In this document: one piece after another, positions 26,783 through 59,212 of the stretch
How the letters are laid out: every line of letters starts with the position of its first letter
Numbering within the stretch: position 1 is the first letter of the stretch
IMG/VR virus record: IMGVR_UViG_3300014205_000173
Origin: a virus
Taxonomy: Duplodnaviria > Caudoviricetes
DNA: 64,000 nucleotides
Strand: one strand, 5' to 3'
Notes under the pieces: generated by a model
The model's input: the letters and a program-made list of their open reading frames with translations, nothing else
The model's database searches: none
Told to the model about the DNA's origin: nothing
Translations under genes and position numbers: made by a program

Positions 26783-26799
26783 ATAGCACCCATCATATT

Positions 26800-28131
26800 T
26801 TATTTTTTAACAAAGCTTTCTCTATCAATATTACCAAGATCAAAATTTTGTTTGTCACTTTCGTTTAATTCTTCAAAAAAAGCATCTGGTTTTGCTCTAT
26901 AATCAGCCTTCGCATATAAAAACCTATCCATACTTAAGTCATATATAATTGGATCTAATCCAGTTACATTTAGACAGTATAGTGCTAATGATCCAACGCC
27001 AGAACCACGTCCTGCTGATATTTTTTTACCTTCTCTTTTAGAGAAAGCACAGTAGTCTGAAACAATTAAAAAATAAGTTTCAAATTTAGTAAATCTTATT
27101 GTTTCCATTTCCGTAAAAAGACGTTCTCTGTATTCTTGAGAATTACTAAGACCTCTCTTCTCCAATCCTTCAAATGCTAAAAATCTAAGATATGCATCTT
27201 CTTCAGTTCTTCCCCAAAGAGTTTCTTTAAATTTATTAAACTTTTCATTATCTTTCGGTATATCAAACCTTGGAAGTTTTGCTTTTCTAGGTACTATATC
27301 TTCAACCTTATCATATATTTCCATTGTATTATGTAAAAGCTCTAATCCCTTACCCTTAAAAATAAGAGCCATTTCATCATAAGATTTCATGTAGTATTCT
27401 GATGATTGATTATAGTCTGGCGGCAACGGTCCACTTCTAGAAATTGAAATCTTTACACGTTGGGCTTCCGCATCATCTTTATATGAATAGTGACAATCAT
27501 TAGTAGCTATTGTCTTTATATTAAGTTCCCTACCCATCTCAACAAGAGTTTTTAAAACTTTTAACTGAGGTTGATATCCAGTCCACATCACTTCAAAATA
27601 ATAATCATCACCCCAAATATTTCTACTTGTCTTTGCAAGCTCATATGCAGCATTTAAATCATCATTTATTATTAGCTGTGACATCTTACTTGATGTACAT
27701 CCAGATGTAACAATTAAACCCTCGCTGTTATCTTTTAAGTTTTCCAACGTTAAACATGGAAATTCATTAAATGGTTTTTTTAATATTTGTGTATATGAAA
27801 GACTTGATAATATATTTATATTCTCATAGCCTTTAATGTTTTTTGCCAAAATTGTTTGATGATATATTTTTGATTTATTAGAAGATATATCGTCTACAAT
27901 ATATGCCTCCAATCCATAAATTGGTTTTATATTATATTTTTTACATGCCTTTCTAAACGAAGGAAATCCACCGACTATACCGTGATCAGTAAGAGCAATT
28001 CCTTTAAATCCTAATTCACTTGCTCTTTTAGCCATTATCTCCATTTCTTGCATTCCATCATATAAAGAAAAATGAGAGTGATTATGTAGGTGAACGAAAT
28101 TAACTTTTTTCGTTTCTGTAGATTCAACCAT
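26800..28131 (-). CDS. dnaE: DNA polymerase III alpha, N-terminal part (PHP domain to GRGS motif)
   Basis: FVHLHNHSHFSLYDG, ALTDHG, GLEAY, ATNDCHY, GRGSGVGSLALYCLNVTGLDP, DRFL. Confidence 0.92.
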   Translation of the reverse strand: MVESTETKKVNFVHLHNHSHFSLYDGMQEMEIMAKRASELGFKGIALTDHGIVGGFPSFRKACKKYNIKPIYGLEAYIVDDISSNKSKIYHQTILAKNIKGYENINILSSLSYTQILKKPFNEFPCLTLENLKDNSEGLIVTSGCTSSKMSQLIINDDLNAAYELAKTSRNIWGDDYYFEVMWTGYQPQLKVLKTLVEMGRELNIKTIATNDCHYSYKDDAEAQRVKISISRSGPLPPDYNQSSEYYMKSYDEMALIFKGKGLELLHNTMEIYDKVEDIVPRKAKLPRFDIPKDNEKFNKFKETLWGRTEEDAYLRFLAFEGLEKRGLSNSQEYRERLFTEMETIRFTKFETYFLIVSDYCAFSKREGKKISAGRGSGVGSLALYCLNVTGLDPIIYDLSMDRFLYAKADYRAKPDAFFEELNESDKQNFDLGNIDRESFVKK

Positions 28132-38412: not shown

Positions 38413-41052
38413 TTGAATCCAAAAATATATATAAAAAATATATGGAGCACGGTTGATGGTCTTCCCCACAACTCATATATGAGGTTGTATGACGAATTAT
38501 CTTACGATGTTCCCGGGGCTTGTTTTGCGATAGAAAATGCAAAAAAAATACAAGAACAAGAAGATAGATTTAACTATCTGGCAAATTGGGATGGTAAAAA
38601 ACATCTTTTAAAAAAAGTAAGAAATAAAGAAAATTCAGCAACCTTTTTATCTGGACTAATATCTAGAGTTTATAAAATTTTAGTTGAAGAATTTAATGTT
38701 TTGCCTGAAATTATAGACGAAAGAACCAAGCCAGAAAAAATATTAAATCTTGAATGGAATCCGGAATTTATATTACACAATTACCAGTCTGACGTTGTAA
38801 CCACTTCATTGAGAAAGGGAAGAGGTTTAATCGAAATGTCAACTGGAAGTGGCAAAACGTTAGTTGTTTCTAAGATAATTCAAGAAGTTGGTGTTTGTCC
38901 TTTTATTTTTTATGTTCTAACTAAAGACTTAATGTATCAAGCAAAAGAAAGATTAGAAGAGTATATTAAAGATCTAAAGGTCGGAGTTATAGGAGATGGG
39001 ATTTGCGATATAAAAGAAATTAATATAATGACAATACAAACAGCATATAGGTGTTACGAAAAACCATCAAAGAAAGAAAAAGAAAAATTTTTAGATCTAG
39101 ATGAGTCGGATCTAAAGAAAATAAAAAGCGAAAAACTAGATCATTTAAAAAAGAAAGAATCTATTATAGATTTAATAGAAAGCGCAAAAGGTATATATAT
39201 AGATGAATGTTTAGTTGGAAATACTAAAATTATAAATAGCGATGGTATTCCAATTGAAATTTGTAAAATTAGAAATGGAGAAAATATTTTAGGAGGTTGT
39301 GTTTCTAACTTTTTTTCTAAAAATGTAGATTCTGTTGAAAAAATAATTCATTCTTGTGGAGAATTAACAACTTCTTTAAGACACAAACATCTTTGCATAA
39401 AACATGAAACTTTATCAAATGGACAAAGAAAATTTAGGCTTAAAGATGCAATTGAAAAAGATGTAGAAGAATGTATAGCCTCAAAATTAGAAGTAAATGA
39501 TTTTTTATTAGTTCCAACATCAATTATTCATAATCCTAAAGAAGATAATAAATTAACCTTTAATCAAATGAGATTAATTGGTGCAATAATGGGGGATGGG
39601 CACATTGAGTTATATGGGTATAAGGTTAAAATAAATGTATCAAAAGATTATGAATGGTTTAAAGAAGTTTTCGAAAGTGGTCTTAAGGATTTTGGAATAA
39701 TAAATTATATATCAAAAATAGATTCAATGGGAAATTTATTATTATCTGTATCTGATAAAGTTTTTAATAATTTTCTTGTAAATACAATAGGAATTAATAG
39801 AGGAAAAAAATCAAACACAATAAAAATAAATGAATATTTATGGAATAATCCAATTGAATCTTTACTGGGTCTTGTTGATGGATTGTTTGGATCTGAAGGA
39901 GATGTTTCTAAAAACAGAGTAAATATTCTAAATTCATCTTCATATGAGATGATTTGCGATATTCAATTAATTTTATTGAAATTAAATATAATTTCAAACA
40001 TACAAACAATACCTAGAAAAAGTAAAAAACACAATAATATGTATAGACTTTCCATAACAGGAGACGATATACAAAAAACTAAAAAAATTAATTTATCTAT
40101 GGAAAGAAAATATAATCAAATATTGTCAATAAAAAAGACAAATATTAAAAAAAGAATTGTAACTTACAAAGGTAATAGTTTTTATTTAAGTAAAATAAAA
40201 AAAATAGAAAAAATAGAAAAAATGACGGAAGTTTTCGATTTTACTTGTAATGATCATGTATTTATAGCAAATAATGCACTCACACACAACTGTCACCATA
40301 CCGCTGCAAGCACATGTCAAACGATAGTTAATCATTCTAATAATGCTTATTATATTTTTGGAGGAACTGCAACCCTTGAGAGAGAGGATAATGCCGATTT
40401 AGAAGTTGAGGGTGTTTTTGGAAGGAAAATAGGAGAAATATCAGCCTCTTTCTTAATTGAAAGGGGATTCTTAATTCAGCCAAATATATTTTATATAAAT
40501 TTAAAAGGAAGTAAAAGAAGAGTAAAAAATTATTCAGAAGATTATAAACAGCACATTGTAGATAATGATGAGAGAAATAAGTATATTGTTGAAATAGCAA
40601 GAAATATGGAATCTAAAGAAATTCCAACGTTGATTTTAGTTCAAAGAATAGAACATGGCGAAATGTTAAGAAACAGAATTCCTAACTCTGTTTTCCTTCA
40701 AGGTAAATCAACCAACAGACAAGAGGCTATTAGTGATTTAAAGAACAAAAGATTAAATGTATTAATAGCTACAAGTTTGGCGGATGAAGGATTAGATATT
40801 CAAAGGCTTAAATGTTTGATTTTAGCTGGAGGTGGAAAATCATCTGCTAAATGTAAACAAAGAGTTGGTCGTGTAATAAGAACATGCAAGGCTGAAAACA
40901 AGAAAGATGCTTTTGTTTATGATTTTAATGATATTGGAAGATGGGTTTCAGAACACTCAACTGTAAGAAGAAAAATACTAAAACAAGAACCTAAATTTAT
41001 TGTTTCTAATATAGATAGTTTTGAGATAGTAAAAAAGAAAAATATTTTTTAA
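38413..41052 (+). CDS. SF2 DExH helicase (UvsW/XPB-like) containing an intein
   Basis: YQ, STGSGKT, DE|CHH after splicing, TAT, DEGLDI, QRVGRVIR. Confidence 0.9.
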   Translation: MNPKIYIKNIWSTVDGLPHNSYMRLYDELSYDVPGACFAIENAKKIQEQEDRFNYLANWDGKKHLLKKVRNKENSATFLSGLISRVYKILVEEFNVLPEIIDERTKPEKILNLEWNPEFILHNYQSDVVTTSLRKGRGLIEMSTGSGKTLVVSKIIQEVGVCPFIFYVLTKDLMYQAKERLEEYIKDLKVGVIGDGICDIKEINIMTIQTAYRCYEKPSKKEKEKFLDLDESDLKKIKSEKLDHLKKKESIIDLIESAKGIYIDECLVGNTKIINSDGIPIEICKIRNGENILGGCVSNFFSKNVDSVEKIIHSCGELTTSLRHKHLCIKHETLSNGQRKFRLKDAIEKDVEECIASKLEVNDFLLVPTSIIHNPKEDNKLTFNQMRLIGAIMGDGHIELYGYKVKINVSKDYEWFKEVFESGLKDFGIINYISKIDSMGNLLLSVSDKVFNNFLVNTIGINRGKKSNTIKINEYLWNNPIESLLGLVDGLFGSEGDVSKNRVNILNSSSYEMICDIQLILLKLNIISNIQTIPRKSKKHNNMYRLSITGDDIQKTKKINLSMERKYNQILSIKKTNIKKRIVTYKGNSFYLSKIKKIEKIEKMTEVFDFTCNDHVFIANNALTHNCHHTAASTCQTIVNHSNNAYYIFGGTATLEREDNADLEVEGVFGRKIGEISASFLIERGFLIQPNIFYINLKGSKRRVKNYSEDYKQHIVDNDERNKYIVEIARNMESKEIPTLILVQRIEHGEMLRNRIPNSVFLQGKSTNRQEAISDLKNKRLNVLIATSLADEGLDIQRLKCLILAGGGKSSAKCKQRVGRVIRTCKAENKKDAFVYDFNDIGRWVSEHSTVRRKILKQEPKFIVSNIDSFEIVKKKNIF
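39208..40290 (+). mobile_element. Contiguous intein with LAGLIDADG homing endonuclease (361 aa)
   Basis: Starts CLVGNTKI, ends VFDFTC...ALTHN/C; LIGAIMGDG and LVDGLFGSEG motifs. Confidence 0.92.
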
Positions 41053-45855: not shown

Positions 45856-46655
45856 TGAATATAAGACACGAATTTTATAAACTAGATATAGAAACTAAAA
45901 ATTCAAAATATAAAAAAATAAACAGAAAACTAAAAGGTTTATATGGGCAATTGCCAGCCAGCAAGTGTCTTTTTTGTCCGGGAAAATGTAGCGTAGAAGC
46001 TGATTGTTGTAAAGTTTTTTCTCCTCCAATGTTACTCGTTGAATTTTTAAACGCCATAGAAACAATAAACGAGTGGGATAAAGAAAAGCAAAGAACACTT
46101 TTGTTTAGTTGCTTGGATTCGTTTATTATAATAGAATCTGTAAAACCATGTATTTTGTTGGAAAAAAATCTATGTTCCATTTATGGAGCAAGACCGTTAT
46201 CTTGTAGATTGTTTTCTATGTATCCTGATGAAGAATGGGAAAAAAGATTAAATATAATATCAAAAGATTCTAATGTAAACAAAGAAGATTTGCCTTTTTT
46301 CAAACAATGTAGAAATGTAGAAATAGATGGGAATGAAAAAACAGTACCAACAAAAAAATCAGATGCTATTTTTAAAAAACTTTACAAACTTGATATTGAA
46401 CTTTTTCAAAATAAAGAAATTGGAACAAAAATTGTATTAAATGATTCTTCTACATATATGCCATTCGAAGCACACTATATATGTTACAAACTAGGAGCAC
46501 ATATAATTCAAGTATTAACTGATATGAAATTAATGATAAGAAAACTAAAAGAAAATAAAGAAAGCGGGTCATTAGAGTACATAAAACTAGAAAAAAACTT
46601 GAAGGAGTTTGTTGGGGTCCTAAAGAATTCTTTGGTGTTGAATAATGTTTTATAG
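45855..46655 (+). CDS. YkgJ-family (CxxCxxCC) cysteine-cluster protein
   Basis: CLFCPGKC...CC, PCILL...CSIYGARPLSCRLF. Confidence 0.8.
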   Translation: MNIRHEFYKLDIETKNSKYKKINRKLKGLYGQLPASKCLFCPGKCSVEADCCKVFSPPMLLVEFLNAIETINEWDKEKQRTLLFSCLDSFIIIESVKPCILLEKNLCSIYGARPLSCRLFSMYPDEEWEKRLNIISKDSNVNKEDLPFFKQCRNVEIDGNEKTVPTKKSDAIFKKLYKLDIELFQNKEIGTKIVLNDSSTYMPFEAHYICYKLGAHIIQVLTDMKLMIRKLKENKESGSLEYIKLEKNLKEFVGVLKNSLVLNNVL

Positions 46656-46663
46656 GTTAAGAA

Positions 46664-46954
46664 ATGTCAAAAATTCCGAAAACAACACAAATGAAAACAG
46701 TAGATATAGTTTCTGCCATTGTAGATCCAAATTCTTTAGGTATTAATATAAGAACAAAAAACTCAAATGGGGAAATTGAAGGATATTTTGTTCCAACAGA
46801 AGTTTGGGGAAGAATTCCTCCAAATAAAAATGCGGCCCAAGAACTTGAGAAAATTGCTCGTATCCTCAATGGATACAAGGAAGACTCTAATGGTGAATGG
46901 GTTCCTGTTGAAAATTTCAAATCTAGAAAAATAAATATAGAAACAGAATCTTAA
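46664..46954 (+). CDS. Hypothetical protein
   Basis: 96 aa, co-oriented, followed by a terminator. Confidence 0.55.
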   Translation: MSKIPKTTQMKTVDIVSAIVDPNSLGINIRTKNSNGEIEGYFVPTEVWGRIPPNKNAAQELEKIARILNGYKEDSNGEWVPVENFKSRKINIETES

Positions 46955-46961
46955 ACAAAGC

Positions 46962-46991
46962 ATACAAGAAATTTAAATCTTGTATTTTTTT
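46962..46991 (+). terminator. Intrinsic terminator upstream of nrdJ
   Basis: ATACAAGA-AATTTAAA-TCTTGTAT plus T run. Confidence 0.6.
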
Positions 46992-47009
46992 ATTTTTTGG
47001 AGAAAGTAA

Positions 47010-48332
47010 ATGAAAAGTTTTTTAAACACAAAATACGAAGAAGTTAAAGATATAACAGATGAAGATTATTTTAATAACAATAAATTTTCAATTGACGCAG
47101 TTAAGAAAAAATATATATTAACTCAAGATGAAACATACATAAAAGCTTTAAAAAGAGTTTGTGATTATGTTGCGTCGGTAGAAGAAACTGAAGAACAAAA
47201 AAAATATTGGTCGGAAAGATGGTTTAGCGAAATTTATAATGATTGGTGGCAACCAGCAGGCTCTATTATGCAAGGAGCTGGTTCTGGAAAAAACGTATCT
47301 CTTTCAAATTGCACTACAATCTCTATGGGAAATATTTCAGAAAATGAAGAGTGGGACAATTTAGAGTCAATAATAAAAAACACAGCATATACCGTTGCGA
47401 AAACTGCCGCCTTTCGACAAGGACTTGGCGTTGATTTTTCAAGGCTAAGACCGAGACAATCTAAAATAGAAAATTCATCAAATGAAAGCCTCGGGGTAGC
47501 TCATTGGATGAAGTTTGTAGACTCTATTGGAAATTTTGTAGGGCAAAAAGGAAGAGTACCCGCAATGCTTTTTTCTTTAATATGCACACATCCAGATATT
47601 GAAGAATTTATTTGTCTTAAATCTGACAGGACCAAGGTTCAAAATGCAAATATTTCTGTTCAGTGTACTAATAAATTTTATGAAGCCTGTATTGCAAATG
47701 AAGATATAGAATTGTCTTTTAATATTCCTGAAGTAAAAAAAGGACAGAAGGTTTATATAGATGTCCATAGCACAGATTTATCATCATTGAAAGACGAAAA
47801 TGGACACTATTATATAGCAAGGAAAAACAGAAAAGAAGAAAATATAAAAAAAACAATAAGTGCAAGATATTTGCTTGAATTAATTTCAAAAAACATGACA
47901 AAACATGCTGAACCCGGAATACAAAATATTGATATTGCAAGAAAATATTCAAATTCAGATTGGGTTTATGATGAGAACGATGTTTATAATTCTAAAATAC
48001 AGTCTTCAAATGCATGTTGTGTTGTTGGTGAAACAAAAATAATGACAAGTATTGGGTGGATAAAAATAGAAGATATATATAAAAACAAAATGTATGAAAA
48101 AAATATTTTAGTAATGAGTTATAATATTAAAGACAAGAAGTATGAACTTAAACCTCTTTTAAATTCATGGCAATCAAGAAATGACAAAACTGTTGAATTA
48201 GAAATTGAGGAAGATGGTATGGTTTATAGAATTGAGTGCTCTTCTGATCATAAAATATTCACAAAAAATAGAGGATACATAGAAGCCGCAAGCTTATCAG
48301 AAGATGATGATATAATGATTTTTAAAAAATAG
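47010..48332 (+). CDS. nrdJ: Class II ribonucleotide reductase fragment 1 (aa 1-336) + split intein 1 N-half
   Basis: PAGSI, SLSNC, GLGVDFSRLRP, HPDIEEFI, NANISV, AEPG, SSNAC, then intein CVVGETKI...CSSDHKIFTKNRGY...EDDDI (48018-48329). Confidence 0.92.
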   Translation: MKSFLNTKYEEVKDITDEDYFNNNKFSIDAVKKKYILTQDETYIKALKRVCDYVASVEETEEQKKYWSERWFSEIYNDWWQPAGSIMQGAGSGKNVSLSNCTTISMGNISENEEWDNLESIIKNTAYTVAKTAAFRQGLGVDFSRLRPRQSKIENSSNESLGVAHWMKFVDSIGNFVGQKGRVPAMLFSLICTHPDIEEFICLKSDRTKVQNANISVQCTNKFYEACIANEDIELSFNIPEVKKGQKVYIDVHSTDLSSLKDENGHYYIARKNRKEENIKKTISARYLLELISKNMTKHAEPGIQNIDIARKYSNSDWVYDENDVYNSKIQSSNACCVVGETKIMTSIGWIKIEDIYKNKMYEKNILVMSYNIKDKKYELKPLLNSWQSRNDKTVELEIEEDGMVYRIECSSDHKIFTKNRGYIEAASLSEDDDIMIFKK

Positions 48333-48399
48333 AGTGTTGCTATTGATTTTTTTTAGAAATTAACAAAATGACCTATTAATTTCTTATTGAGGTTTTATT

Positions 48400-49407
48400 G
48401 TGAATAAAAATTATTGTAAGGAAAAGAAAGGGAAGATTAAAATTTGTGGATATAGAAATGGAAGAGGATATTGTGGGTGGTATGAAAATAAAGATGGAAA
48501 AAGAATGTTTTTAAGATCTAAAAAAGAATATATTTATGCTTTGTTTTTAGATAAAAACGGGAAGCATTTTTTAACCGAAAAATCTATATTTGTTATAAAT
48601 GATATAAAATACAAGCCAGATTTTTTTATATATAATAACGATTATACTAAATTGATAGAAATAATAGAAATTAAGGAAAACAAAAAAGAAGCAGAAAGAT
48701 ATTTAAAATTTAAAGAGCATTTTAAGTCTATAGGAATTGTTTATAATGTTGAATTTAGAACGGATATAATTAAAAGAAAATATGTCACAAAAGACGAATT
48801 GAAATATTGGGAAGATCAATATTTAAAAAATTATTCAGAATATAGTATGTCTGGGGAAAACAATCCAATGTTTGGAATGAAACATAGTGACGAAACTAAA
48901 AAGAAAATAGGCATACAAACTAAAAAGTATATGCAAAATGAGGATATAAAAAAAAGACATAGTAATTCTATAAAGAATTTTTGGAATTCTGAAAAATCAA
49001 ATAAATATAAATTAAAATATAAGATATTGAGAAACGAAGAAAAAAGAAAAAGAGATGAATTAAATCCAATTATTGAAAAAAAATGTTCTTTTTGTGGTAA
49101 AATATTTTTAGATAAGAAAAATAATTTAAAAACAAACTGTTCTTCCAGTTGCTCTATAAAAAATGCTTGGAAGACTGGAAAACTAATAAAAAAAATAGAT
49201 GGCAAAAAGGGATATCCAATCAAAATAATAATGTATTCGAAAATGATTGAAGAATATTTTGATGAAAATAATTGGAATTATATAGTAAAAAAATATAAAG
49301 AAATTGGTAAAATTCCAAAACACTTTGGAATGAATCTTAATATTATTGAAAAATATTTTAACAACTTAAATGAATTAAGGAAGAAAGTAAATGGGAAAGC
49401 TAATTAG
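48400..49407 (+). CDS. Free-standing putative homing endonuclease (PD-(D/E)xK domain + NUMOD3 + Zn finger)
   Basis: RSKKE...YKPDF...IIEIK; GENNPMFGMKHSDETKKKI; CSFC...CSSSC; lies between the halves of split intein 1. Confidence 0.75.
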   Translation: MNKNYCKEKKGKIKICGYRNGRGYCGWYENKDGKRMFLRSKKEYIYALFLDKNGKHFLTEKSIFVINDIKYKPDFFIYNNDYTKLIEIIEIKENKKEAERYLKFKEHFKSIGIVYNVEFRTDIIKRKYVTKDELKYWEDQYLKNYSEYSMSGENNPMFGMKHSDETKKKIGIQTKKYMQNEDIKKRHSNSIKNFWNSEKSNKYKLKYKILRNEEKRKRDELNPIIEKKCSFCGKIFLDKKNNLKTNCSSSCSIKNAWKTGKLIKKIDGKKGYPIKIIMYSKMIEEYFDENNWNYIVKKYKEIGKIPKHFGMNLNIIEKYFNNLNELRKKVNGKAN

Positions 49408-50338
49408 CATTAAAATAAAAGAAGAAATAAAACCACTTTATGATATAGAAGTTGATTCTAACCATAATTTTGTAGTAAATGATGGAATTTTAATAAAAAA
49501 CTCTGAGCAATATCTTTCCAGAGAGAGTTTGTGCGTTTTAGCATCATTAAATGCAGCAAAATGTTCAACCATTGAAGAAGAGTATGAAGAAGAGTTAGAG
49601 GTTCTTGGAGAGTCTATAAATAGATTTTTAGATAATGTTAATGAGTGTGAATATCGCTACGAAACATATGCTACACCTCATCAGAAAATAGCAATAGAAA
49701 AACTAAGAAGAACTGGTGCTGGATATACTAATTTAGCTGGATGGCTTTTTTTAAAGAATTTAGAATACGGATCTCCTGAAGGAAATTTAGCATTAGAAAA
49801 ATTTACAGAAAGATATAATTACTTTCTTTATAAAAATTCTATAAAATTAGGTAAGGAAAAGGGATCTTTTGGATTATTCAAAAGAGAAAAATTTGAACAA
49901 AGTCCTTTTGTAAAAAGAATGATGAGTTTGGGTCTTGAATTTGAGGCAATGAGAAATTGCACATGTTCTAGTGTGGCACCTACAGGTTGTTGCACTAAAG
50001 AGACAAAAATAATAACAAAAAATAAAACCATGAGTTTTTTGGAAATCTTTGAAGAGAATGAAATCGACATCGAAAAACTTGAAAATGGCAATGAAGAGAA
50101 AAAATGGTTTGAACCAAAAAAAGAAATTTATGCAAAAAATATTAACGGAGAATATGATAAAATAACAAAACTTTATTATAATGGGTACGATGTTGTGAAA
50201 AATATAAAATTTGAAGACAATTCCATAATATCGGCAACTCCAATTCATAAAGTTTTAGTAAAAATAAATGAAGAAGAGGCTATTTGGAAAGAAATAGACT
50301 TATTGGAAATTGGCGATGAAGTTTTATTTTTAGAATAA
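49391..50338 (+). CDS. nrdJ: Split intein 1 C-half + RNR fragment 2 (162 aa) + split intein 2 N-half
   Basis: MGKLISIK...YDIEVDSNHNFVVNDGILIKN|SEQYL...LCVLASLN...RRTGAG...RNCTCSSVAPTG|CCTKETKI...ATPIHKVLV...LEIGDEV. Confidence 0.92.
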   Translation: MGKLISIKIKEEIKPLYDIEVDSNHNFVVNDGILIKNSEQYLSRESLCVLASLNAAKCSTIEEEYEEELEVLGESINRFLDNVNECEYRYETYATPHQKIAIEKLRRTGAGYTNLAGWLFLKNLEYGSPEGNLALEKFTERYNYFLYKNSIKLGKEKGSFGLFKREKFEQSPFVKRMMSLGLEFEAMRNCTCSSVAPTGCCTKETKIITKNKTMSFLEIFEENEIDIEKLENGNEEKKWFEPKKEIYAKNINGEYDKITKLYYNGYDVVKNIKFEDNSIISATPIHKVLVKINEEEAIWKEIDLLEIGDEVLFLE

Positions 50339-50347
50339 AAGGGATTT

Positions 50348-50395
50348 TACAATAGCTCCAAGAATAGTAAATAAATTATTGTTGGAGCTATTGTA
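50348..50395 (+). promoter_or_regulatory. RBS/start-sequestering hairpin upstream of homing endonuclease 2
   Basis: Perfect 14-bp inverted repeat TACAATAGCTCCAA (50348-50361) / TTGGAGCTATTGTA (50382-50395) covering GGAG and the A of ATG. Confidence 0.75.
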
Positions 50396-51672
50396 TGAAA
50401 GGCAAAATTTTATGCACTTATTGTAAAAAGAAAATATTTAATGAGTTTGTTCATTTGAAGAAAAAGCATGGAGAAAAAGAAATAGAGCAATATCTTAAAA
50501 AAATTAATTTTAAAATAATGTATTGTTTAAAAACTGGAAAAATAATAATTCCAGAATGGAGTAGAAAAGAAAATGCAATAGTTAATAAAAAATTGAAAAA
50601 ATTATTTGGAACAAAGGTTGAGTTTTACCAAGTTTTGTGCAATGAAGAATGTAAAAAGTATAAAAATAGAAAAGACCTCATAACCAATAAATACAATATT
50701 GATGAAAGTATATATAATGATTTAATGGAAAAATATAATAAAAATAAAGGAACCACATTAGAAAAGCTTATAAAAAAACATGGAGAAGAAAAGGGTAATG
50801 AAATTTATTTGAATATAAAAAAATCAAAGTACACAACTAATTGGTGGATAGAAAAATACGGAGAAGAAAAAGGTTTAGAAAAACAAAAACAATGGAAAGA
50901 CAAAACTAATGGATCTTTGAAAAGATATATAGAAAAATTTGGAGAACTTGAAGGTAAACAAAAATATAATGAATTTAAAGAAAAATGTTCAATATATAAT
51001 AAAAAACATAGGGTTGGAAAATTTGGAGAAACTGAATATGAAAGTTCTTTAAAAAAATATAAAAGTAGGAAAAAAGTATTGTCATTAAATTATTTTCTTG
51101 AAAAAAACAATTATGATTATGAAAAATCTTTAGAAGAATTCAAAAAAAGACAAAGAACCAGTGATTTGAAAACACTGCAAAACAAATACGGAGAAGTCGC
51201 TGGAGAAGAAAAATATAAAGAAATAAATAAAAAGAAAACATTTGGATTTGAAGGTAAGAGTCTTTTAGAAACAAATTTCTTAAATGAAATATATGAAAAA
51301 ATAAAAAACAAATTTGAATTTATATATTTTAAAGAAAACAAATATGTATTTTATGCAACAAAAGAATTTAGAATAAAAAATAGATTCGGCATTTACCCAG
51401 ACATGTATATTAAAGATATAAATTTATGTATAGAAATTTTTGGAAATTTTTGGCACATGAATCCATTGAAATATTCTGAAAACGACATAAATCCGGTGAT
51501 TGGAAAAACTGCAAAAGAAATATGGCAAAATGATTCGGAAAGAATAAAATTATTAAAAAATTATTACAATAAAAATGTTATTATAATTTGGGAAAACGAA
51601 ATAAGTGAAAATAGAAAAAAAATTTTAATTGAACTAGAGGGAAAAATAAATGAATATAGTAAAACTACCTAA
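50395..51672 (+). CDS. Free-standing Vsr-like (EDxHD-type) homing endonuclease with KYGEExG repeats
   Basis: Repeats KHGEEKG, KYGEEKG, KFGELEG, KYGEVAG; C-terminal SLLE...YPDMY...IEIFGNFWH...NDSER...IIIWE; lies between the halves of split intein 2. Confidence 0.8.
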   Translation: MKGKILCTYCKKKIFNEFVHLKKKHGEKEIEQYLKKINFKIMYCLKTGKIIIPEWSRKENAIVNKKLKKLFGTKVEFYQVLCNEECKKYKNRKDLITNKYNIDESIYNDLMEKYNKNKGTTLEKLIKKHGEEKGNEIYLNIKKSKYTTNWWIEKYGEEKGLEKQKQWKDKTNGSLKRYIEKFGELEGKQKYNEFKEKCSIYNKKHRVGKFGETEYESSLKKYKSRKKVLSLNYFLEKNNYDYEKSLEEFKKRQRTSDLKTLQNKYGEVAGEEKYKEINKKKTFGFEGKSLLETNFLNEIYEKIKNKFEFIYFKENKYVFYATKEFRIKNRFGIYPDMYIKDINLCIEIFGNFWHMNPLKYSENDINPVIGKTAKEIWQNDSERIKLLKNYYNKNVIIIWENEISENRKKILIELEGKINEYSKTT

Positions 51673-52909
51673 AAACTACAAAATTAAAAAAATCAAGGAA
51701 ATAAAATTTGATTATTCGACCCCAACTTATGATGTTGAGGTTGAAAATTCTCATCATTATATATTAGATAACAATTTAATTTGTCACAATACTTTAAGTT
51801 TGATGTTTAGGGACGGTGTTTTTTCTTACGGAATAGAACCTTCCTTTGGGTTATATTTTTGGAAAAGAACTAGAATTAGTGGTAGTTATGAATATTATTT
51901 TTGTGTACCTAAACTTGTTAGAGATTATTTTGAAAAATGTGGATATAGAATTCCAATGGAATCTGATTCTATAAAAGATACATGGAATGGAGAAATTGGT
52001 AATCCAATTAAGAATTTTATAGAAATACATAAGGAAAAATTAAATATAAAGTTTAAAAATTCCACAGAAATAAATCCACTCGACAAACTAGACTTAATGT
52101 CTAGAGTAATGAAATGGATAGATTCTTCAATATCGGTAACGTACATGTTGCCTGAAAAATCGAACTGGGAAGATGTTTATAATTTTATTTTAGAAGCATA
52201 TAAAAGAGAAGTAAAAAGTATTGCGGCATTTCCGGATAGACAAATGTATGGAATTGTGTCATATATTCCTTTTAAAGATTTAGCATTTAAATTAAAAAAT
52301 GAAAATATGGAAATTGATCAACAGAATTTTTCAGAAGAAGAAAAGATAATTCTTTACGGCGAAACAAGATCAAAGGATTCTATTAAAAAAACTCATGCTC
52401 CAAAAAGGCCAAATACTTTACCTTGTGAAATTCATCATTGTACAAAGGAGGGTCACAGGTATTATGTTGTTGTTGGAATGTTAAATAAAGATCCGTATGA
52501 AGTCTTTCTAAATAGCAATCATGATTCAGAGGGAGAGATTATAGTACCAAAAAACGTTAAAGAGGGTCTTATAAGAAAAGATGGTCGTGGAAAATATACA
52601 CTTGTCTCTGCGGATAAAAAGGAATATAAGTTAACAAATGGAAATTCTGATGAAAATATGGAAGCTGTCACAAGGTTAGTTTCTACGTCACTAAGACATG
52701 GAACCGACATTTCATTTATTCTTCATCAATTGGAAAAGTCAAAGGGAAGCTTTAAAAGTCTGATAAAGGTTCTGTCTCAAGTTTTAAAGAAATACATAAA
52801 GGATGGAACTATAGTTAGTGGAGAAAAGTGCCCTAATTGTGGAAATGAAAAACTAAACAGGAATGAAGGGTGTATTAGCTGTCTTGAATGCGGATATTCT
52901 AAGTGTTAG
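51650..52909 (+). CDS. nrdJ: Split intein 2 C-half + RNR fragment 3 (372 aa, with TSCPD-like domain and Zn ribbon)
   Basis: KIKKIKEI...TYDVEVENSHHYILDNNLICHN|TLSL...SYGIEP...WIDSSISVT...APKRP...RLVSTSLRHG...CPNC...EGCISCLECGYSKC. Confidence 0.92.
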   Translation: MNIVKLPKNYKIKKIKEIKFDYSTPTYDVEVENSHHYILDNNLICHNTLSLMFRDGVFSYGIEPSFGLYFWKRTRISGSYEYYFCVPKLVRDYFEKCGYRIPMESDSIKDTWNGEIGNPIKNFIEIHKEKLNIKFKNSTEINPLDKLDLMSRVMKWIDSSISVTYMLPEKSNWEDVYNFILEAYKREVKSIAAFPDRQMYGIVSYIPFKDLAFKLKNENMEIDQQNFSEEEKIILYGETRSKDSIKKTHAPKRPNTLPCEIHHCTKEGHRYYVVVGMLNKDPYEVFLNSNHDSEGEIIVPKNVKEGLIRKDGRGKYTLVSADKKEYKLTNGNSDENMEAVTRLVSTSLRHGTDISFILHQLEKSKGSFKSLIKVLSQVLKKYIKDGTIVSGEKCPNCGNEKLNRNEGCISCLECGYSKC

Positions 52910-52918
52910 AAGAAGATC

Positions 52919-53470
52919 TTGATGAATAATTTTGAGAAAATTTATGTCTTTGGAATAAAGACTTGTAAATTTTGTAAAGACCAAATGGATATGTTGGGAA
53001 ATGTATTTTCATCTGAAAATATCCAGTATATAGATTTGCTTGAAGATGATGGTGCTTTAGAAATTGCAAAAGATTTAAATATAGAATATACTCCATCTAC
53101 TGTTGTTGTTTGCGGAGATAAGGTTATCCTACACAAGACAGGACTTTCATCTGCTGATGAAATATTTTATTCTATAGAAAAATCTATTCCAGTTGATTAC
53201 GAATTTATTTCAAAACTTAAAGAAAATAAAACAGGATCTATTTTACTTTCCTTTAATCCCAAAACAAATAGCTTAGTAAACCTTAAAACTTATGATGGAA
53301 AGGTTTCTATAATGGCAAAAATTGTATCTGTAAAAAAAATAAGTTCTTCTGAGATTGGGTCTTTTAGTAAAAAAGCATTAAAAAAATACTTTTTACAATG
53401 TGGCAAGAAATCTGAAATTTTTCAGATAAGTCTTGAGAGAGGAACTAATGGATTTGCCAAAAACATTTAA
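52919..53470 (+). CDS. Thioredoxin/glutaredoxin-like protein with C-terminal extension
   Basis: CKFC, cis-Pro motif YTPST; directly follows nrdJ. Confidence 0.75.
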   Translation: MMNNFEKIYVFGIKTCKFCKDQMDMLGNVFSSENIQYIDLLEDDGALEIAKDLNIEYTPSTVVVCGDKVILHKTGLSSADEIFYSIEKSIPVDYEFISKLKENKTGSILLSFNPKTNSLVNLKTYDGKVSIMAKIVSVKKISSSEIGSFSKKALKKYFLQCGKKSEIFQISLERGTNGFAKNI

Positions 53471-55805
53471 AGAAAGATTAACTCCAAGAGTTAGAAATAT
53501 TGTTTGTTATAAATCTTTTGAAAATGCAGAGACAGAACAAAGAGTTGTAGTTCTTCCTAAGGATATATTATTATCCATATTGGAAGACAATAAAACATTT
53601 GCATTTCAAGTGGTAAAGGTATTTAATTTAGATTTAAAACAACTTTTATTAGATATTAAAAGTGAGGTTTTGTCTTTTCAAGGAATTAAAGATAAAAAAA
53701 CACACCATGAATCAACTTTACAATTAATGAAAGTTGCAGAAAAAGTTTCTCGTGAAATGCAAAAAATTCAGGTAGGGTCTGAGCACATTATTTTGGCGTT
53801 TCTAAGATATGATGGAAAATCTAAACATATATTAAATTTTGGTCAAATTTTACAAAAATATGGAATAGCGTATAATAATTTTTTTGAAGGTGTAATATCT
53901 ATTGCAAATCATGTTGATGAAAATGTAAAAGAAAAACAAGAAGAAAAGCAAAAAGAAAATACAAAGTCTGGACACTCAAAATCTGAAGGATTTAAAACCT
54001 TTGAAGAAATGTCTAAATATTTATTTGATTCAGGTATACTTAAAAACTTAAACGATTCTGTTTTTAAGAAAAACGAAAAAATTGTTGGGAGAGAAAATCA
54101 AATAAAAAGATGTATTGGTATTCTTTGTAGAAAAAAGAAAAGTAACCCAATAATAATTGGGCAGCCCGGAACAGGCAAAACAACATTGGCTGATGGAATT
54201 GCTCAAGCAATAATAAACCATGAAATCCCAGATAAGCTTTTAAATGCCGTAGTTTATGAAATTTCTCTTAGTAATATTGTTTCTGGAACAAAGTATCGTG
54301 GACAATTTGAAGAGAAAATGGTAAATGTAATAAATTTTTTTACATCAGAAAAAAATCCTGAAGTTTTCAAAATAGCATTTATTGACGAAATTCATCATTT
54401 AATAAAGGCTGGTAGTGCAGAAGGTTCTGTTGATGCTAGTTTTATCTTAAAGCCAAAATTGGCAGACGGTTCTTTAAGGTGTATAGGGACAACGACTTTA
54501 GAGGACTATAGAAAGTTTATTCTTTCAGATAGTGCTTTGGCAAGAAGGTTTATGCCTGTTTTCCTTGAAGAACCAACAATTGAAGAAACTGTTCAAATTT
54601 TAAATACAGTAAAATGTGAGTATGAAAAGTTTCATGGAATATCTATTTCAGAACAAGCAATTAGTAGATGTGTAGAATTAGCTGATATATATATAAAAGA
54701 TAGATTTTTCCCAGATAAAGCGTTTGATATATTAGATGAATCTTGTGCTCAAACTATTATAAATTCAATTGGAATGGAAACATTAGTAGAACTAAAAAAC
54801 GAAACAATAGAAAATGTTGTATCAAATATGTCTAATGTTCCAATTTCTACAGTTTGTGGATCTGAAAGAGAAAGGCTGTCTGAACTTCAAAATAATTTAA
54901 TGGAAGAAGTTGTAGGTCAAAAACAAGCAATTATTACTGTATGTAATTCGATAAAAAGATCTAGGCTTGGATTTAAAGACAAAAACAAACCAATAGGTTC
55001 TTATTTATTTGTTGGTAAAACAGGTGTTGGAAAAACATTCCTTTCCAAGAAATTATCAGAACATCTTTTTGGTCCAAATAAATTAATTAGACTTGATATG
55101 AGTGAGTATATGGAACCTCATTCTGTTTCTAAAATAATTGGATCTCCTCCCGGTTATGTTGGATATGAAAGTGGTGGACAGTTAACTGAAATGGTTAGAA
55201 ACAAACCCTACTCAGTAATTCTTCTTGATGAAATAGAAAAAGCACATTTAGATGTTATAAACATTTTATTACAGGTATTGGATGATGGGCGACTTACAGA
55301 TTCGTTTGGAAGAGTTTCTGACTTTAGAAATACTATAATAATAATGACTAGCAATCTTTCTGCATCAAAAATAAATAAAATGAATGAAAATTCTCTTGGA
55401 TTTAATTCAAGTAAAAAAATAGATACCAATAATGATATAGAAAAATTCTTAAAAAAAGAAGCTGAAAAATATTTCTCTCCAGAATTTATAAACAGATTAG
55501 ACGAAATAGTTGTATTTAATAAGTTTGAAAGAGAAGATATATATAAAATATTTGAAATAGAATTAAATGAATCTATAAAAAGATTGGCCGAAAATAAATA
55601 CATCGTTGAAGTAACAGATGCAATGAAAAATCATGTGTACGAATTTGGATATGATGAAAAGTTTGGAGCAAGACCAATGAAAAGAGCAATTGCAAGTTTG
55701 GTTGAAATTCCACTAGCAAATGCATTTTTTAGCGGCCTAATTGACAGCAAGGGAACAATCGTAATTGATTTGGTAGACAGTGAAGTTGTGTTCACAAATA
55801 AATAA
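53448..55805 (+). CDS. clpC: ClpC/ClpA-type AAA+ unfoldase
   Basis: Clp-N repeats (GSEHIILA), GQPGTGKT, KYRGQFEE, FIDEIH, FFPDKAFD, GKTGVGKT, DMSEYME, GSPPGYVGY, LLDEIEKAH, LGF loop. Confidence 0.9.
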   Translation: MDLPKTFKERLTPRVRNIVCYKSFENAETEQRVVVLPKDILLSILEDNKTFAFQVVKVFNLDLKQLLLDIKSEVLSFQGIKDKKTHHESTLQLMKVAEKVSREMQKIQVGSEHIILAFLRYDGKSKHILNFGQILQKYGIAYNNFFEGVISIANHVDENVKEKQEEKQKENTKSGHSKSEGFKTFEEMSKYLFDSGILKNLNDSVFKKNEKIVGRENQIKRCIGILCRKKKSNPIIIGQPGTGKTTLADGIAQAIINHEIPDKLLNAVVYEISLSNIVSGTKYRGQFEEKMVNVINFFTSEKNPEVFKIAFIDEIHHLIKAGSAEGSVDASFILKPKLADGSLRCIGTTTLEDYRKFILSDSALARRFMPVFLEEPTIEETVQILNTVKCEYEKFHGISISEQAISRCVELADIYIKDRFFPDKAFDILDESCAQTIINSIGMETLVELKNETIENVVSNMSNVPISTVCGSERERLSELQNNLMEEVVGQKQAIITVCNSIKRSRLGFKDKNKPIGSYLFVGKTGVGKTFLSKKLSEHLFGPNKLIRLDMSEYMEPHSVSKIIGSPPGYVGYESGGQLTEMVRNKPYSVILLDEIEKAHLDVINILLQVLDDGRLTDSFGRVSDFRNTIIIMTSNLSASKINKMNENSLGFNSSKKIDTNNDIEKFLKKEAEKYFSPEFINRLDEIVVFNKFEREDIYKIFEIELNESIKRLAENKYIVEVTDAMKNHVYEFGYDEKFGARPMKRAIASLVEIPLANAFFSGLIDSKGTIVIDLVDSEVVFTNK

Positions 55806-57553: not shown

Positions 57554-58385
57554 CCATCAAGAAACACAATACCTTACTTTATTAGAAGATATAATAGATA
57601 ACGGAAAGGTTCATGACGATAGAACTGGAACTGGAACATATAGATTAAAAAACAAAACACTTTCTTTCGATTTAAGTGAAGAATTTCCTTTACTAACCAC
57701 TAAAAAAATGTTTGTTAAAGGAATCATAACAGAACTCCTTTGGTTTCTTAATGGAGATACAAATTTAAAGTATTTGCATGAAAATGGAAATCATATTTGG
57801 GATAAAAATCAAGAAAATTTTGTAGAAAAAAGAAAAATAAAAAATTTAAAAACAAATGATGGTGACTGTGGAAATATATATGGCAAACAGTGGCGAAATT
57901 TCAACGGAGTAGACCAAATATCTGAATTAATAAAGAACATAAAAAGCGACCCTAACAGCAGAAGACATATTGTTAGTTCGTGGAATCCAGAGGATATTAA
58001 TCCGTATTCATGCTGTTTGCCCCCGTGCCATGTTCTTTTTCAATGCTTTGTAGAAAAAGACGAATTATCCTTAACTCTTTACCAACGTTCGGGAGATTTT
58101 TTCCTCGGAATTCCATTCAATCTTGCCTCGTATAGCATCCTTACTTGCATGATAGCTCATGTTTGTGACTTAAAACCAAAGACTTTTTTCCATTTTATTG
58201 GAGACTGTCATGTTTATAAGAATCATTTAAATCAGTGTAAAGAGCAACTAAAGAGAACTCCTTTTAAATTTCCAAAACTTAAAATAAAAAGGAAAGTTGA
58301 AAATATATTTGATTTTAAACTTGAAGACTTTGAGTTTGAAGATTACATTTCTCATCCTACAATTAAGGCAGAAATGTCTGTATGA
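57546..58385 (+). CDS. thyA: Thymidylate synthase
   Basis: DRTGTGT, FPLLTTKK, ELLWFL, YGKQWR, SRR, LPPCH, YQRSGD, PFNLASY, GDCHVYKNH. Confidence 0.97.
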   Translation: MNNHQETQYLTLLEDIIDNGKVHDDRTGTGTYRLKNKTLSFDLSEEFPLLTTKKMFVKGIITELLWFLNGDTNLKYLHENGNHIWDKNQENFVEKRKIKNLKTNDGDCGNIYGKQWRNFNGVDQISELIKNIKSDPNSRRHIVSSWNPEDINPYSCCLPPCHVLFQCFVEKDELSLTLYQRSGDFFLGIPFNLASYSILTCMIAHVCDLKPKTFFHFIGDCHVYKNHLNQCKEQLKRTPFKFPKLKIKRKVENIFDFKLEDFEFEDYISHPTIKAEMSV

Positions 58386-59212
58386 TAAGTGGAATATACC
58401 AAATAAAAAATACCATTAATAACAAATTTTATATTGGTAGCGCAAAAAACTTAAACGTAAGAAAAGCAAGACATTTTTCTTCTTTAAAAAATTGTAGACA
58501 TGAAAACATCTATTTGCAAAGATCTTACAATAAGCATGGTGAATGTTTTTTTGTTTTCAATATTATGGAATATTGTGAAGAAAAATATTTATTGGAAAGA
58601 GAGCAATATTATTTAGATTTGTTAAAACCATTTTATCCAAATGGATATAATATAGGAATAAACTCTAGCGGTGGAGATAATTTAACATTAAATCCAAACA
58701 GAAAAAATATTATTGAAAAAATAAAAAATACAGTAACTAAAAAAATAAAAAGTATGACAAAAGATGAGAGAGTTGCAAAGTGGGGGATGTTCGGAGAAAA
58801 TAATCCAAATTTTGGGAATAAATGGAGTAACGAAAGTAGAAAAAAATTATCAGTATTTCAAAAAGAATTATGGAAAAATAATTCTTATAAAAATATGATG
58901 ATTGAAAAGTTTAAAGGCAAAACAAAAACATATTTTAATAGAGATATTTCTGGAAAAAATAATCCGTTTTTTGGTAAAAAACATACAAAAGAAACAATTA
59001 AAATACTTTCCGAAAAAGGTAGAGATAGATTCTTGAAAGCAACTCCAGAAGAAAGATATTTAAAAAATAAGCAAATAAAAAAAGTTTATGCAGAAGGAAA
59101 CATTTACTTCGGGCTATCAGAAGCAGCAAGATCTTACAATATATCTCCTTCGACAATGCTGTTTAGAGTTAACTCAAAAACTGAAAGGTTTAAAGAGTTT
59201 TATTATTTATAA
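58382..59212 (+). CDS. Free-standing GIY-YIG homing endonuclease with NUMOD3 motifs
   Basis: SGIYQIKN...FYIGSA...R...H, EREQYYLD, GYN, GENNPNFG, GKNNPFFGKKHTKET. Confidence 0.9.
   Translation: MISGIYQIKNTINNKFYIGSAKNLNVRKARHFSSLKNCRHENIYLQRSYNKHGECFFVFNIMEYCEEKYLLEREQYYLDLLKPFYPNGYNIGINSSGGDNLTLNPNRKNIIEKIKNTVTKKIKSMTKDERVAKWGMFGENNPNFGNKWSNESRKKLSVFQKELWKNNSYKNMMIEKFKGKTKTYFNRDISGKNNPFFGKKHTKETIKILSEKGRDRFLKATPEERYLKNKQIKKVYAEGNIYFGLSEAARSYNISPSTMLFRVNSKTERFKEFYYL

Follow-up and report, generated by a model that had tools for sequence, protein, structure and literature searches.

The nrdJ locus examined here, which encodes a ribonucleotide reductase (RNR) in several pieces, lies in a stretch of 64,000 nucleotides (nt), hereafter called the window, of the IMG/VR virus record IMGVR_UViG_3300014205_000173. 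The source is a huge phage of a landfill metagenome, with an AT-rich contig of 287,662 bp (~288 kb), and the GC content of the window is ~29%. At the locus, five open reading frames (ORFs) of the + strand succeed one another with small gaps or overlaps, the RNR pieces being the first, the third and the fifth. Piece 1 is located at 47010–48332 (440 amino acids, aa), piece 2 at 49391–50338 (315 aa) and piece 3 at 51650–52909 (419 aa), whereas the second and the fourth ORFs are free-standing genes of the homing endonuclease type, of 335 and 425 aa, respectively. Each RNR piece has its own ribosome-binding site (RBS) of the GGAG, AAGGA or GAGGG type, ~7 nt 5′ of the ATG, and the start codons of pieces 2 and 3 are placed inside the 3′ ends of the endonuclease genes. 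Co-transcription of all five ORFs is probable. No second RNR copy was found within the window.

Intein splicing domains were found by Pfam at the inner ends of the RNR pieces, and the boundaries between exteins and inteins were placed by motif. With these boundaries, the composition proposed by the sequence-only reading is exact: 336 aa of extein and 104 aa of an N-terminal intein half (IntN-1) in piece 1; 37 aa of a C-terminal half (IntC-1), 162 aa of extein and 116 aa of a second N-terminal half (IntN-2) in piece 2; and 47 aa of IntC-2 followed by 372 aa of extein in piece 3. The exteins sum up to 870 aa and, as the same reading had stated, the motifs N-A-C|S-E and APTG|T are restored at the joints. 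In detail, extein 1 (47010–48017, +, 336 aa, with GGAG 7 nt 5′ of the ATG) ends in SSNAC, in which the Cys is that of the thiyl radical in the N-x-C-x-E motif. Extein 2 (49502–49987, +, 162 aa), which runs from SEQYL to VAPTG, holds the catalytic Glu and one redox Cys. The respective residues, E39 and C48 of piece 2 (both within extein 2), align with the catalytic Glu and a redox Cys of Thermotoga maritima NrdJ, Glu324 and Cys333 in the numbering of that enzyme. Extein 3 (51791–52909, +, 372 aa plus stop) starts with TLSLM and comprises the end of the RNR barrel, a TSCPD domain (3.7e-09) and a C-terminal CxxC...CxxC zinc ribbon, the tail of which (CPNCG...CISCLECG) is invariant in the relatives.

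The RNR barrel is colinear across the three pieces, which match positions 9–213, 222–391 and 399–521 of the Pfam profile PF02867. Similarly, the NCBIfam model TIGR02504 (NrdJ_Z, the adenosylcobalamin-dependent RNR equivalog) is the top match of every piece, again in colinear order (positions 19–282 in extein 1, 283–459 in extein 2 and 459–598 in extein 3), and neighboring matches meet directly at each joint (282|283 and 459|459). A relative without inteins, protein P0013, is continuous across the two joints (...TNACSEQYLS... and ...APTGTLSLMFRD...), and exteins 2 and 3 follow in one frame in two related metagenomic loci (L011 and L012). On the best reading of these sequences, the product would be the catalytic large chain of an RNR of class II (B12-type).

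The first joint is flanked by the halves of intein 1. IntN-1 (48018–48332, +, 104 aa plus stop) starts with CVVGET, thus with Cys1, has SSDH in block B and carries an acidic EDDD near its C-terminus. It matches the solved NrdJ-1 split intein (PDB 8ubs) with an E of 1.4e-11 over 101 residues, and the NCBIfam model intein_Nterm at 2.3e-09. IntC-1 (49391–49501, +, 37 aa), which matches intein_Cterm at 1.1e-05, has block F as YDIEV..NHNF and ends in LIKN with Ser at position +1. The junction KN|SEQYL is invariant in the eight nrdJ sequences aligned, the window included. The insertion of intein 1 lies one residue past the thiyl-radical Cys. This is the insertion point of the NrdJ-1/NrdJ-2 fractured genes from the GOS metagenomes (Dassa et al. 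2009, PMC2677866), reported there as new, in which the host enzyme is the same and the C-extein likewise starts with SE. Given the identical insertion point and the homology of IntN-1 to NrdJ-1, the first break corresponds to an allele of a fractured gene already known.

The second joint is flanked by IntN-2 (49988–50338, +, 116 aa plus stop), which starts with CCTKET, has Cys1, TPIH in block B and an acidic tail, and by IntC-2 (51650–51790, +, 47 aa), which has a basic head and YDVEV in block F and ends in ICHN with Thr at +1. HN|TLSLM is invariant in the six nrdJ sequences aligned, including that of the window. By sequence, no solved relative was found for either IntN-2 or IntC-2. Their complex was predicted from residues 200–315 of piece 2 and residues 1–50 of piece 3 with purpose-built alignments, and it scored 0.90 against 0.00 for the best of three controls; a pass which, as solved split-intein complexes exist, may partly reflect likeness to, or memory of, those. 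Among solved complexes, 58 of 80 attained that mark, as against two of 110 mismatched pairs. The prediction runs agree in at least 95% of the contacts and the pLDDT of the partner is at least 84. The prediction supports a HINT-type pairing of the two halves, and intein 2 is a putative new split intein that uses Thr at +1 of its junction and lacks a relative of solved structure.

A three-piece gene depends on the reality of its stop codons. If these were assembly or sequencing errors, or if the pieces were joined at the RNA level, nrdJ would in fact be continuous, and the possibility deserves attention in a metagenome assembly, all the more as the related locus L007 shows frameshift-like breaks in intein 1, endonuclease 2 and extein 3. 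The sequence-only reading had itself named assembly errors and RNA-level joining as possible objections. A Logan contig of 21,438 bp (depth 14.3), built separately from one landfill-metagenome DNA run and representing a second assembly rather than a second sample, covers 46900–53000 without any difference, gap or joint, identical over 6.1 kb. Independent support is given by homologous loci in other samples, which share the piece boundaries. Moreover, the gaps between the pieces carry complete ORFs of 335 and 425 aa with homologues at the same sites elsewhere, the pieces end and start with matching intein halves, and no Rfam model of a group I or group II intron matched in 46500–53600 at E up to 1. 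Judged by these sequences, the stops would be genuine, and a continuous gene is given almost no credence.

For the splicing residues, each intein half was aligned with the homologous halves of the related nrdJ loci and of one Campylobacter phage. At Cys1, the His of block B, the terminal Asn and position +1 (Ser or Thr), none of the homologues of the four halves shows any variation, at 45–65% identity among the relatives. Block B reads S/A-D-H in IntN-1 and T-x-x-H in IntN-2, the His being invariant. The sizes of the halves (104/37 and 116/47 aa) fit a split at the position of endonuclease insertion (IntN ~100–120 aa, IntC ~35–50 aa). The canonical sequence features of class 1 split inteins are present at both breaks; the departures are the penultimate residue of IntC-1, Lys in place of the His found in IntC-2, and Ser for Thr in block B of IntN-1.

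The reading which most probably accounts for the locus, in agreement with the proposal made from the sequence alone, is that three proteins are stitched by two unrelated split inteins into a single NrdJ of 870 residues. It draws on the conserved nucleophiles, the seamless junctions, the homology to NrdJ-1 and the complex prediction of intein 2. Two active-site loops of nrdJ would have been invaded by two unrelated mobile elements, each consisting of a split intein whose halves enclose a free-standing gene for a homing-type endonuclease. Translation of the three pieces would proceed separately from their own ribosome-binding sites; IntN-1 would pair with IntC-1 and IntN-2 with IntC-2, each pair folding as a HINT domain. 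Each would then follow class 1 splicing, starting with an acyl shift at Cys1, followed by transfer to the Ser or Thr at +1 and by cyclization of the terminal Asn. The two ligations would be independent and possible in any order, and would yield one NrdJ of 870 aa, in which alone the N-A-C-S-E and A-P-T-G-T loops exist. As the breaks fall within the N-x-C-x-E and APTG-T loops, neither a precursor nor a half-spliced intermediate would be expected to be active. What is observed is the anatomy of the locus, its colinearity, the conservation of the splicing residues, the relationship of intein 1 to NrdJ-1 and a layout that recurs; from these we infer that the halves would splice, that the pairs would not cross and that the product would be active.

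Several points weigh against this reading. The pieces scored singly reach 131.7, 74.0 and 52.6 bits, below the curated NrdJ_Z cut-off of 399.95, so the class II assignment rests on the ranking of the matches together with the TSCPD domain and the zinc-ribbon tail. The penultimate residue of IntC-1 is Lys in all nrdJ relatives instead of His, and block B of IntN-1 has Ser for Thr (S/A-D-H in the relatives), with the His kept. The Logan contig possibly derives from the window's own source sample and would then not be independent. Finally, both intein pairs share the same polarity, an acidic IntN tail and a basic IntC head, so electrostatics alone would not suffice and specificity would have to come from shape. 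With regard to the residues, both departures are tolerated in known inteins. The penultimate His is not essential; Npu DnaE, for instance, ends in ASN and has Ser at that position.

The departure in IntC-1 bears on another explanation, according to which the pieces assemble unligated, the intein halves acting only as docking domains, or splicing occurs at one joint only. The model for this is phage Aeh1, in which the gene of the RNR large subunit is cut by a free-standing homing endonuclease gene (nrdA-a / mobE / nrdA-b) and is still functional. Its NrdA, the 'genes in pieces' associated with Friedrich et al. 2007 and Crona et al. 2010, reportedly works without ligation, and this precedent of a split RNR, as well as the missing penultimate His of IntC-1, speaks for unligated assembly. 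As cited in PMC2677866, Aeh1 also has an RBS-sequestering hairpin that regulates the endonuclease; a hairpin of this kind is found at site 2 of the window. It differs in having no inteins and a single break, and its pieces remain separate and are assembled non-covalently. Docking relics would be free to lose the splicing residues, yet all of these are invariant at both joints across the divergent homologues, and a chain break in the catalytic loops, flanked by ~140–160 intein residues, is hard to reconcile with catalysis. Unligated assembly is for these reasons considered unlikely.

The comparison with related loci shows 47–86% identity in the intein halves and 46–71% in the exteins, whereas the endonucleases range from full-length through truncated forms and remnants to complete absence. 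Intein halves that are about as conserved as the exteins point to a similar constraint, and this speaks against mere docking tails as well as against a decaying gene. The latter would be a gene overrun by selfish elements and deprived of its function. It is the view reached for the nrdA of Campylobacter phages, judged to be degenerating in a work that does not mention split inteins or trans-splicing (Dwivedi et al. 2013, PMC3653736), and the two selfish endonuclease genes of the nrdJ locus would agree with it. On the contrary, the exteins are free of frameshifts and internal stops, and every catalytic motif is preserved in them. The piece boundaries are kept over deep divergence and in several samples, and only the endonucleases degrade. 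Decay therefore appears very unlikely, and ligation of the three pieces by the two split inteins remains the preferred reading.

If two pairs of halves act in one cell, their crossing becomes a matter of importance. The sequence-only reading held that a crossing of IntN-1 with IntC-2 would delete the catalytic Glu and a redox Cys, and this is borne out by the position of E39 and C48, both in extein 2. For the reverse cross (IntN-2 with IntC-1), the two halves are on one chain, as the order in piece 2 is IntC-extein-IntN. This is the layout used for engineered cyclization, and a cross-reaction in cis would accordingly circularize extein 2. Selection against the crossing of the pairs would in this respect be real. 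IntN-1 and IntN-2 agree in only 22 of 121 aligned columns, and IntC-1 and IntC-2 are identical at 14 of 47 positions, mostly in the general blocks F and G. In a survey of divergent split inteins, 15 of the 16 tested were orthogonal (Pinto et al. 2020, PMC7090010). Taken with the divergence of the IntN halves, this makes orthogonality the expected default and not a special adaptation, so that the 'ready-made orthogonal pair' of the sequence-only reading is plausible but would not be special. The charge pattern claimed there, with acidic IntN ends and basic IntC starts, holds for intein 2, where the last 20 residues of IntN-2 have a net charge of −6 and the first 20 of IntC-2 one of +6. For intein 1 it is weak at these ends: IntN-1 carries a net charge of only −2 over its last 20 residues and terminates in KK, and IntC-1 is neutral (net 0) over its first 20.

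Endonuclease 1 (48400–49407, +, 335 aa, GTG start) is located between pieces 1 and 2 and shares its last 17 nt with the start of piece 2. It consists of a nuclease-like N-domain with PD...E.K, a NUMOD3 motif (3.5e-08) and a Cys-rich C-terminal part; KPDFF...E.K is invariant. In Pfam, NCBIfam and PHROGs nothing was found for it beyond NUMOD3, with no GIY-YIG and no clear Vsr match. Its structural model has a pLDDT of 74 and gave no Foldseek match at E 0.001 or better. The weak neighbors (E 0.01–0.07), all of them PD-(D/E)xK nucleases including TnsA, would only be consistent with the motif. Homologues are present at the same site in L006 (45% identical), L011 and L013, and only short remnants in L002 and L003.

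Endonuclease 2 (50395–51672, +, 425 aa) is located between pieces 2 and 3, with its 3′ end overlapping the start of piece 3 by 23 nt, and matches phrog_22677 at 1.8e-15. Its C-terminal nuclease domain appears Vsr-like (PD..IE.FG.FWH..WE). Folded alone, the protein reached a pLDDT of 42 and the model was unusable; a profile search was used instead. With a profile that included four relatives, the three best PDB matches were Vsr endonucleases, at a borderline E of ~0.025, with PD..G.FWH..WE aligned. The gene is full-length in L007 and in LR756500.1, truncated in L002 and L003, and absent from L006, where pieces 2 and 3 abut.

An RNA hairpin (50348–50395, +) precedes endonuclease 2. It pairs the GGAG of the RBS, which lies within its 3′ arm, and the first base of the ATG (−26.6 kcal/mol, z −7.8; none of 200 shuffles folds as well), and probably holds down the translation of the endonuclease. 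The design recurs with different stem letters in L007 (z −3.9) and L003 (z −4.4). No such hairpin was found 5′ of endonuclease 1 in the window (z +0.37), in L006 or in L011. Fractured genes with endonucleases of the GIY-YIG or 'Vsr-like' families and with hairpins before the endonuclease start were described by Dassa et al. (2009, PMC2677866), and endonuclease 2, as judged from its motifs, may belong to the latter family.

The layout of a fractured gene, i.e., N-part with IntN and stop, endonuclease ORF, and IntC with C-part on one strand, is found at both breaks, and the hairpin was seen at site 2 and not at site 1. NrdJ-1 and NrdJ-2 have the same one-strand order, with a free-standing endonuclease between the two parts, and the same acidic/basic polarity (PMC2677866). 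They are distinguished by a single break per gene, whereas in the window a second, unrelated split intein follows 162 residues further, at a site not listed for NrdJ. Site 1 itself also differs from them, for its endonuclease has NUMOD3 and PD...E.K, is not clearly GIY-YIG or Vsr-like, and has no hairpin.

The sequence-only reading had advised a search of InBase and phage databases for other doubly split nrdJ genes, and related multi-piece loci were found. A word-indexed search with piece 2 gave seven other full-length middle pieces of 53–62% identity. The metagenomic relatives have nrdJ in two, three or four pieces. L006 has the same three-piece layout; in L003, L004 and L005 a third split intein, placed before the HPD motif, brings the number of pieces to four; and L001 and L002 have four pieces and, in addition, three contiguous inteins. 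In L011 and L012 only the break at site 1 is present, and L013 combines this break with a large contiguous intein at site 2. At site 1 of L007 and L014, the intein is a contiguous mini-intein. On the other hand, nrdJ is broken only at the APTG site in LR756500.1 (L017:5798–9972), a published but unannotated 462-kb uncultured huge phage, where a 616-aa piece ending in an IntN-2 homologue is followed by a 377-aa homologue of endonuclease 2 and by the IntC-2 piece. As site 1 and site 2 each occur alone among the relatives, the two elements appear to move independently.

Some of these loci show further features. The third split intein of L003 (4430–9723; also in L004 and L005) lies just before C/T-HPD, and the gap contains a 190-aa Vsr-like ORF (Pfam Vsr, E 2.8e-4); an IntC at the same third site is also found in protein P0009. 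In L002 (1691–9584, a contig of Logan SRR35212957, the same locus being L001 in JGI 3300043540), the pieces of nrdJ measure 857, 685, 317 and 417 aa, and six inteins were counted, three of them split and the other three contiguous. An insert of 384 aa (PVVGD...FISSN) and one Cys separate ...STNA from the CISGD start of its IntN-1, and by this position the thiyl-radical Cys would be an extein of one residue with an intein on either side. A Pro at the first position of the insert and a Cys in its block F hint at an intein outside class 1. In L006 (629–1967), an ORF for a DnaB helicase with a faint intein match is followed by a small nuclease ORF (DUF559/MTES_1575), and this may be another fractured gene.

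An exhaustive search among representatives at 50% identity yielded about a dozen proteins of 300–355 aa matched almost over their whole length. Nine of the 12 representatives examined start with a full canonical IntC (P0051, P0064, P0065, P0067, P0098, P0121, P0149, P0159 and P0169), P0154 starts inside an IntC, and P0074 and P0117 begin otherwise, without a terminal Asn before the extein. There are at least nine clusters below 50% identity with an IntC-extein-IntN middle piece, and by motif their hosts are of class II type (N|SE..., APTG|C) as well as of class I type (N|C.EI, MPTAS|C).

A cultured phage provides a close parallel. In the Campylobacter phage vB_CjeM_WX1 (OP654737.1, L009:1381–6538), the class Ia NrdA is also encoded in three pieces with ORFs in both gaps: 534 aa (IntN after ...TNLC), 324 aa (IntC-extein-IntN) and 166 aa (IntC ending in SHN|S). 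The breaks are NLC|CE and PAGN|SS, the latter being one residue off site 2 of the window. Its N-terminal halves are 41% (IntN-1) and 30% (IntN-2) identical to those of the window, but the host enzyme is of class I and the intervening ORFs are different. The same middle piece was found by tblastn in the Campylobacter phages CPt10, CP20 and CC_R7. In phage IBB_35 the second intein is contiguous, and the respective paper describes an nrdA 'interrupted by two inteins' without mention of split inteins or trans-splicing (PMC3322345). Based on the related metagenomic phages and the cultured Campylobacter phages, the arrangement is judged to be recurrent and not a one-off.

Two other systems resemble the locus in part. 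An RNR gene with several contiguous inteins is known, for example, in archaeal RIR1. In such genes (also L013, L014 and L002) the active-site loops are likewise favored sites, but the inteins splice in cis from one chain, whereas both inteins of the window are split and three polypeptides must meet. Several inteins per RNR gene are common (Novikova et al. 2016, PMC4760082). Engineered tandem trans-splicing (Pinto et al. 2020, PMC7090010; Khoo et al. 2020, PMC7210297) uses the same chemistry, with a middle fragment carrying the IntC and IntN of different inteins, and the engineered sets employ NrdJ-1 itself (PMC7090010). These are laboratory constructs, in contrast to a natural gene kept by selection. 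In the full-text literature, with most subscription journals outside the search, no natural protein joined from at least three polypeptides by at least two split inteins was found; only engineered ones were. Fractured genes with a single split intein and RNR genes with multiple contiguous inteins are known. The components are each familiar and their combination is a natural extrapolation.

We lean, with considerable reserve, towards a broader view, in which multi-fragment ligation would be a widespread and undescribed route to phage RNR. Three to four polypeptides would be joined by two to three co-resident split inteins, which selection would keep from crossing, as an IntC-extein-IntN piece would otherwise circularize itself. 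In the same view, the element of site 2 (the APTG|T split intein with its Vsr-like endonuclease) would be a new, independently mobile family that can be paired with an intein of the NrdJ-1 type. Three-fragment ligation with orthogonal pairs has been built by hand in laboratories, and the locus and its relatives suggest that phages already do so. Evolution would have had to prevent crossing both in trans, where the middle piece is skipped, and in cis, where it is circularized. Split inteins are workhorses of protein engineering, and such naturally co-evolved pairs are candidates for testing of speed and specificity. The cultured Campylobacter phages offer a system where three-piece trans-splicing could be demonstrated in vivo. 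The mosaic among the relatives documents the life cycle of the elements, with sites empty or occupied by a contiguous or a split intein, and endonucleases intact, truncated or gone. Finally, it can be argued that some of the phage RNR genes recorded as 'disrupted' in databases are functional.

The rest of the window is phage-like, with PHROG matches to DNA polymerase III alpha (PolIII alpha), a DnaB-type helicase, an exonuclease and further helicases; no tRNA was found within it. PolIII alpha is divided over two adjacent ORFs of 443 and 689 aa (24713–28131, − strand), which match positions 36–435 and 412–940 of phrog_405 and are separated by 17 nt. No intein motif is visible where they break, and the gene looks split without an intein.

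Upstream of nrdJ, between the preceding ORF and piece 1, an inverted repeat of AT-rich sequence (CATACAAGA...TCTTGTAT) is located at 46961–46998 and leads into a T run. It is terminator-like, and it was not flagged by the terminator scan because of its few G-C pairs. The scan of 46500–53600 for promoters and terminators was uninformative, with 31 promoter-like sites against 42 expected and no terminator on the + strand. Directly 3′ of nrdJ, an ORF of 183 aa (52919–53470, +) has a CKFC motif and a Thioredoxin_2 match at E 0.0037, under the curated cut-off; tentatively, it is possibly a thioredoxin-like redoxin dedicated to the reductase.

Further putative mobile elements are present in the same phage. 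A region at 58925–59143 (+), inside a 276-aa ORF (58382–59212), has 31% identity (E 4e-4) to the NUMOD3 region of endonuclease 1, and this ORF may be a further gene of the homing endonuclease type. An 879-aa helicase (ResIII, Helicase_C; 38413–41052, +) contains a contiguous intein with a LAGLIDADG domain inside (Pfam Intein_splicing 1e-07, LAGLIDADG_3 2.3e-13), which brings the inteins of the phage to at least three within ~15 kb.

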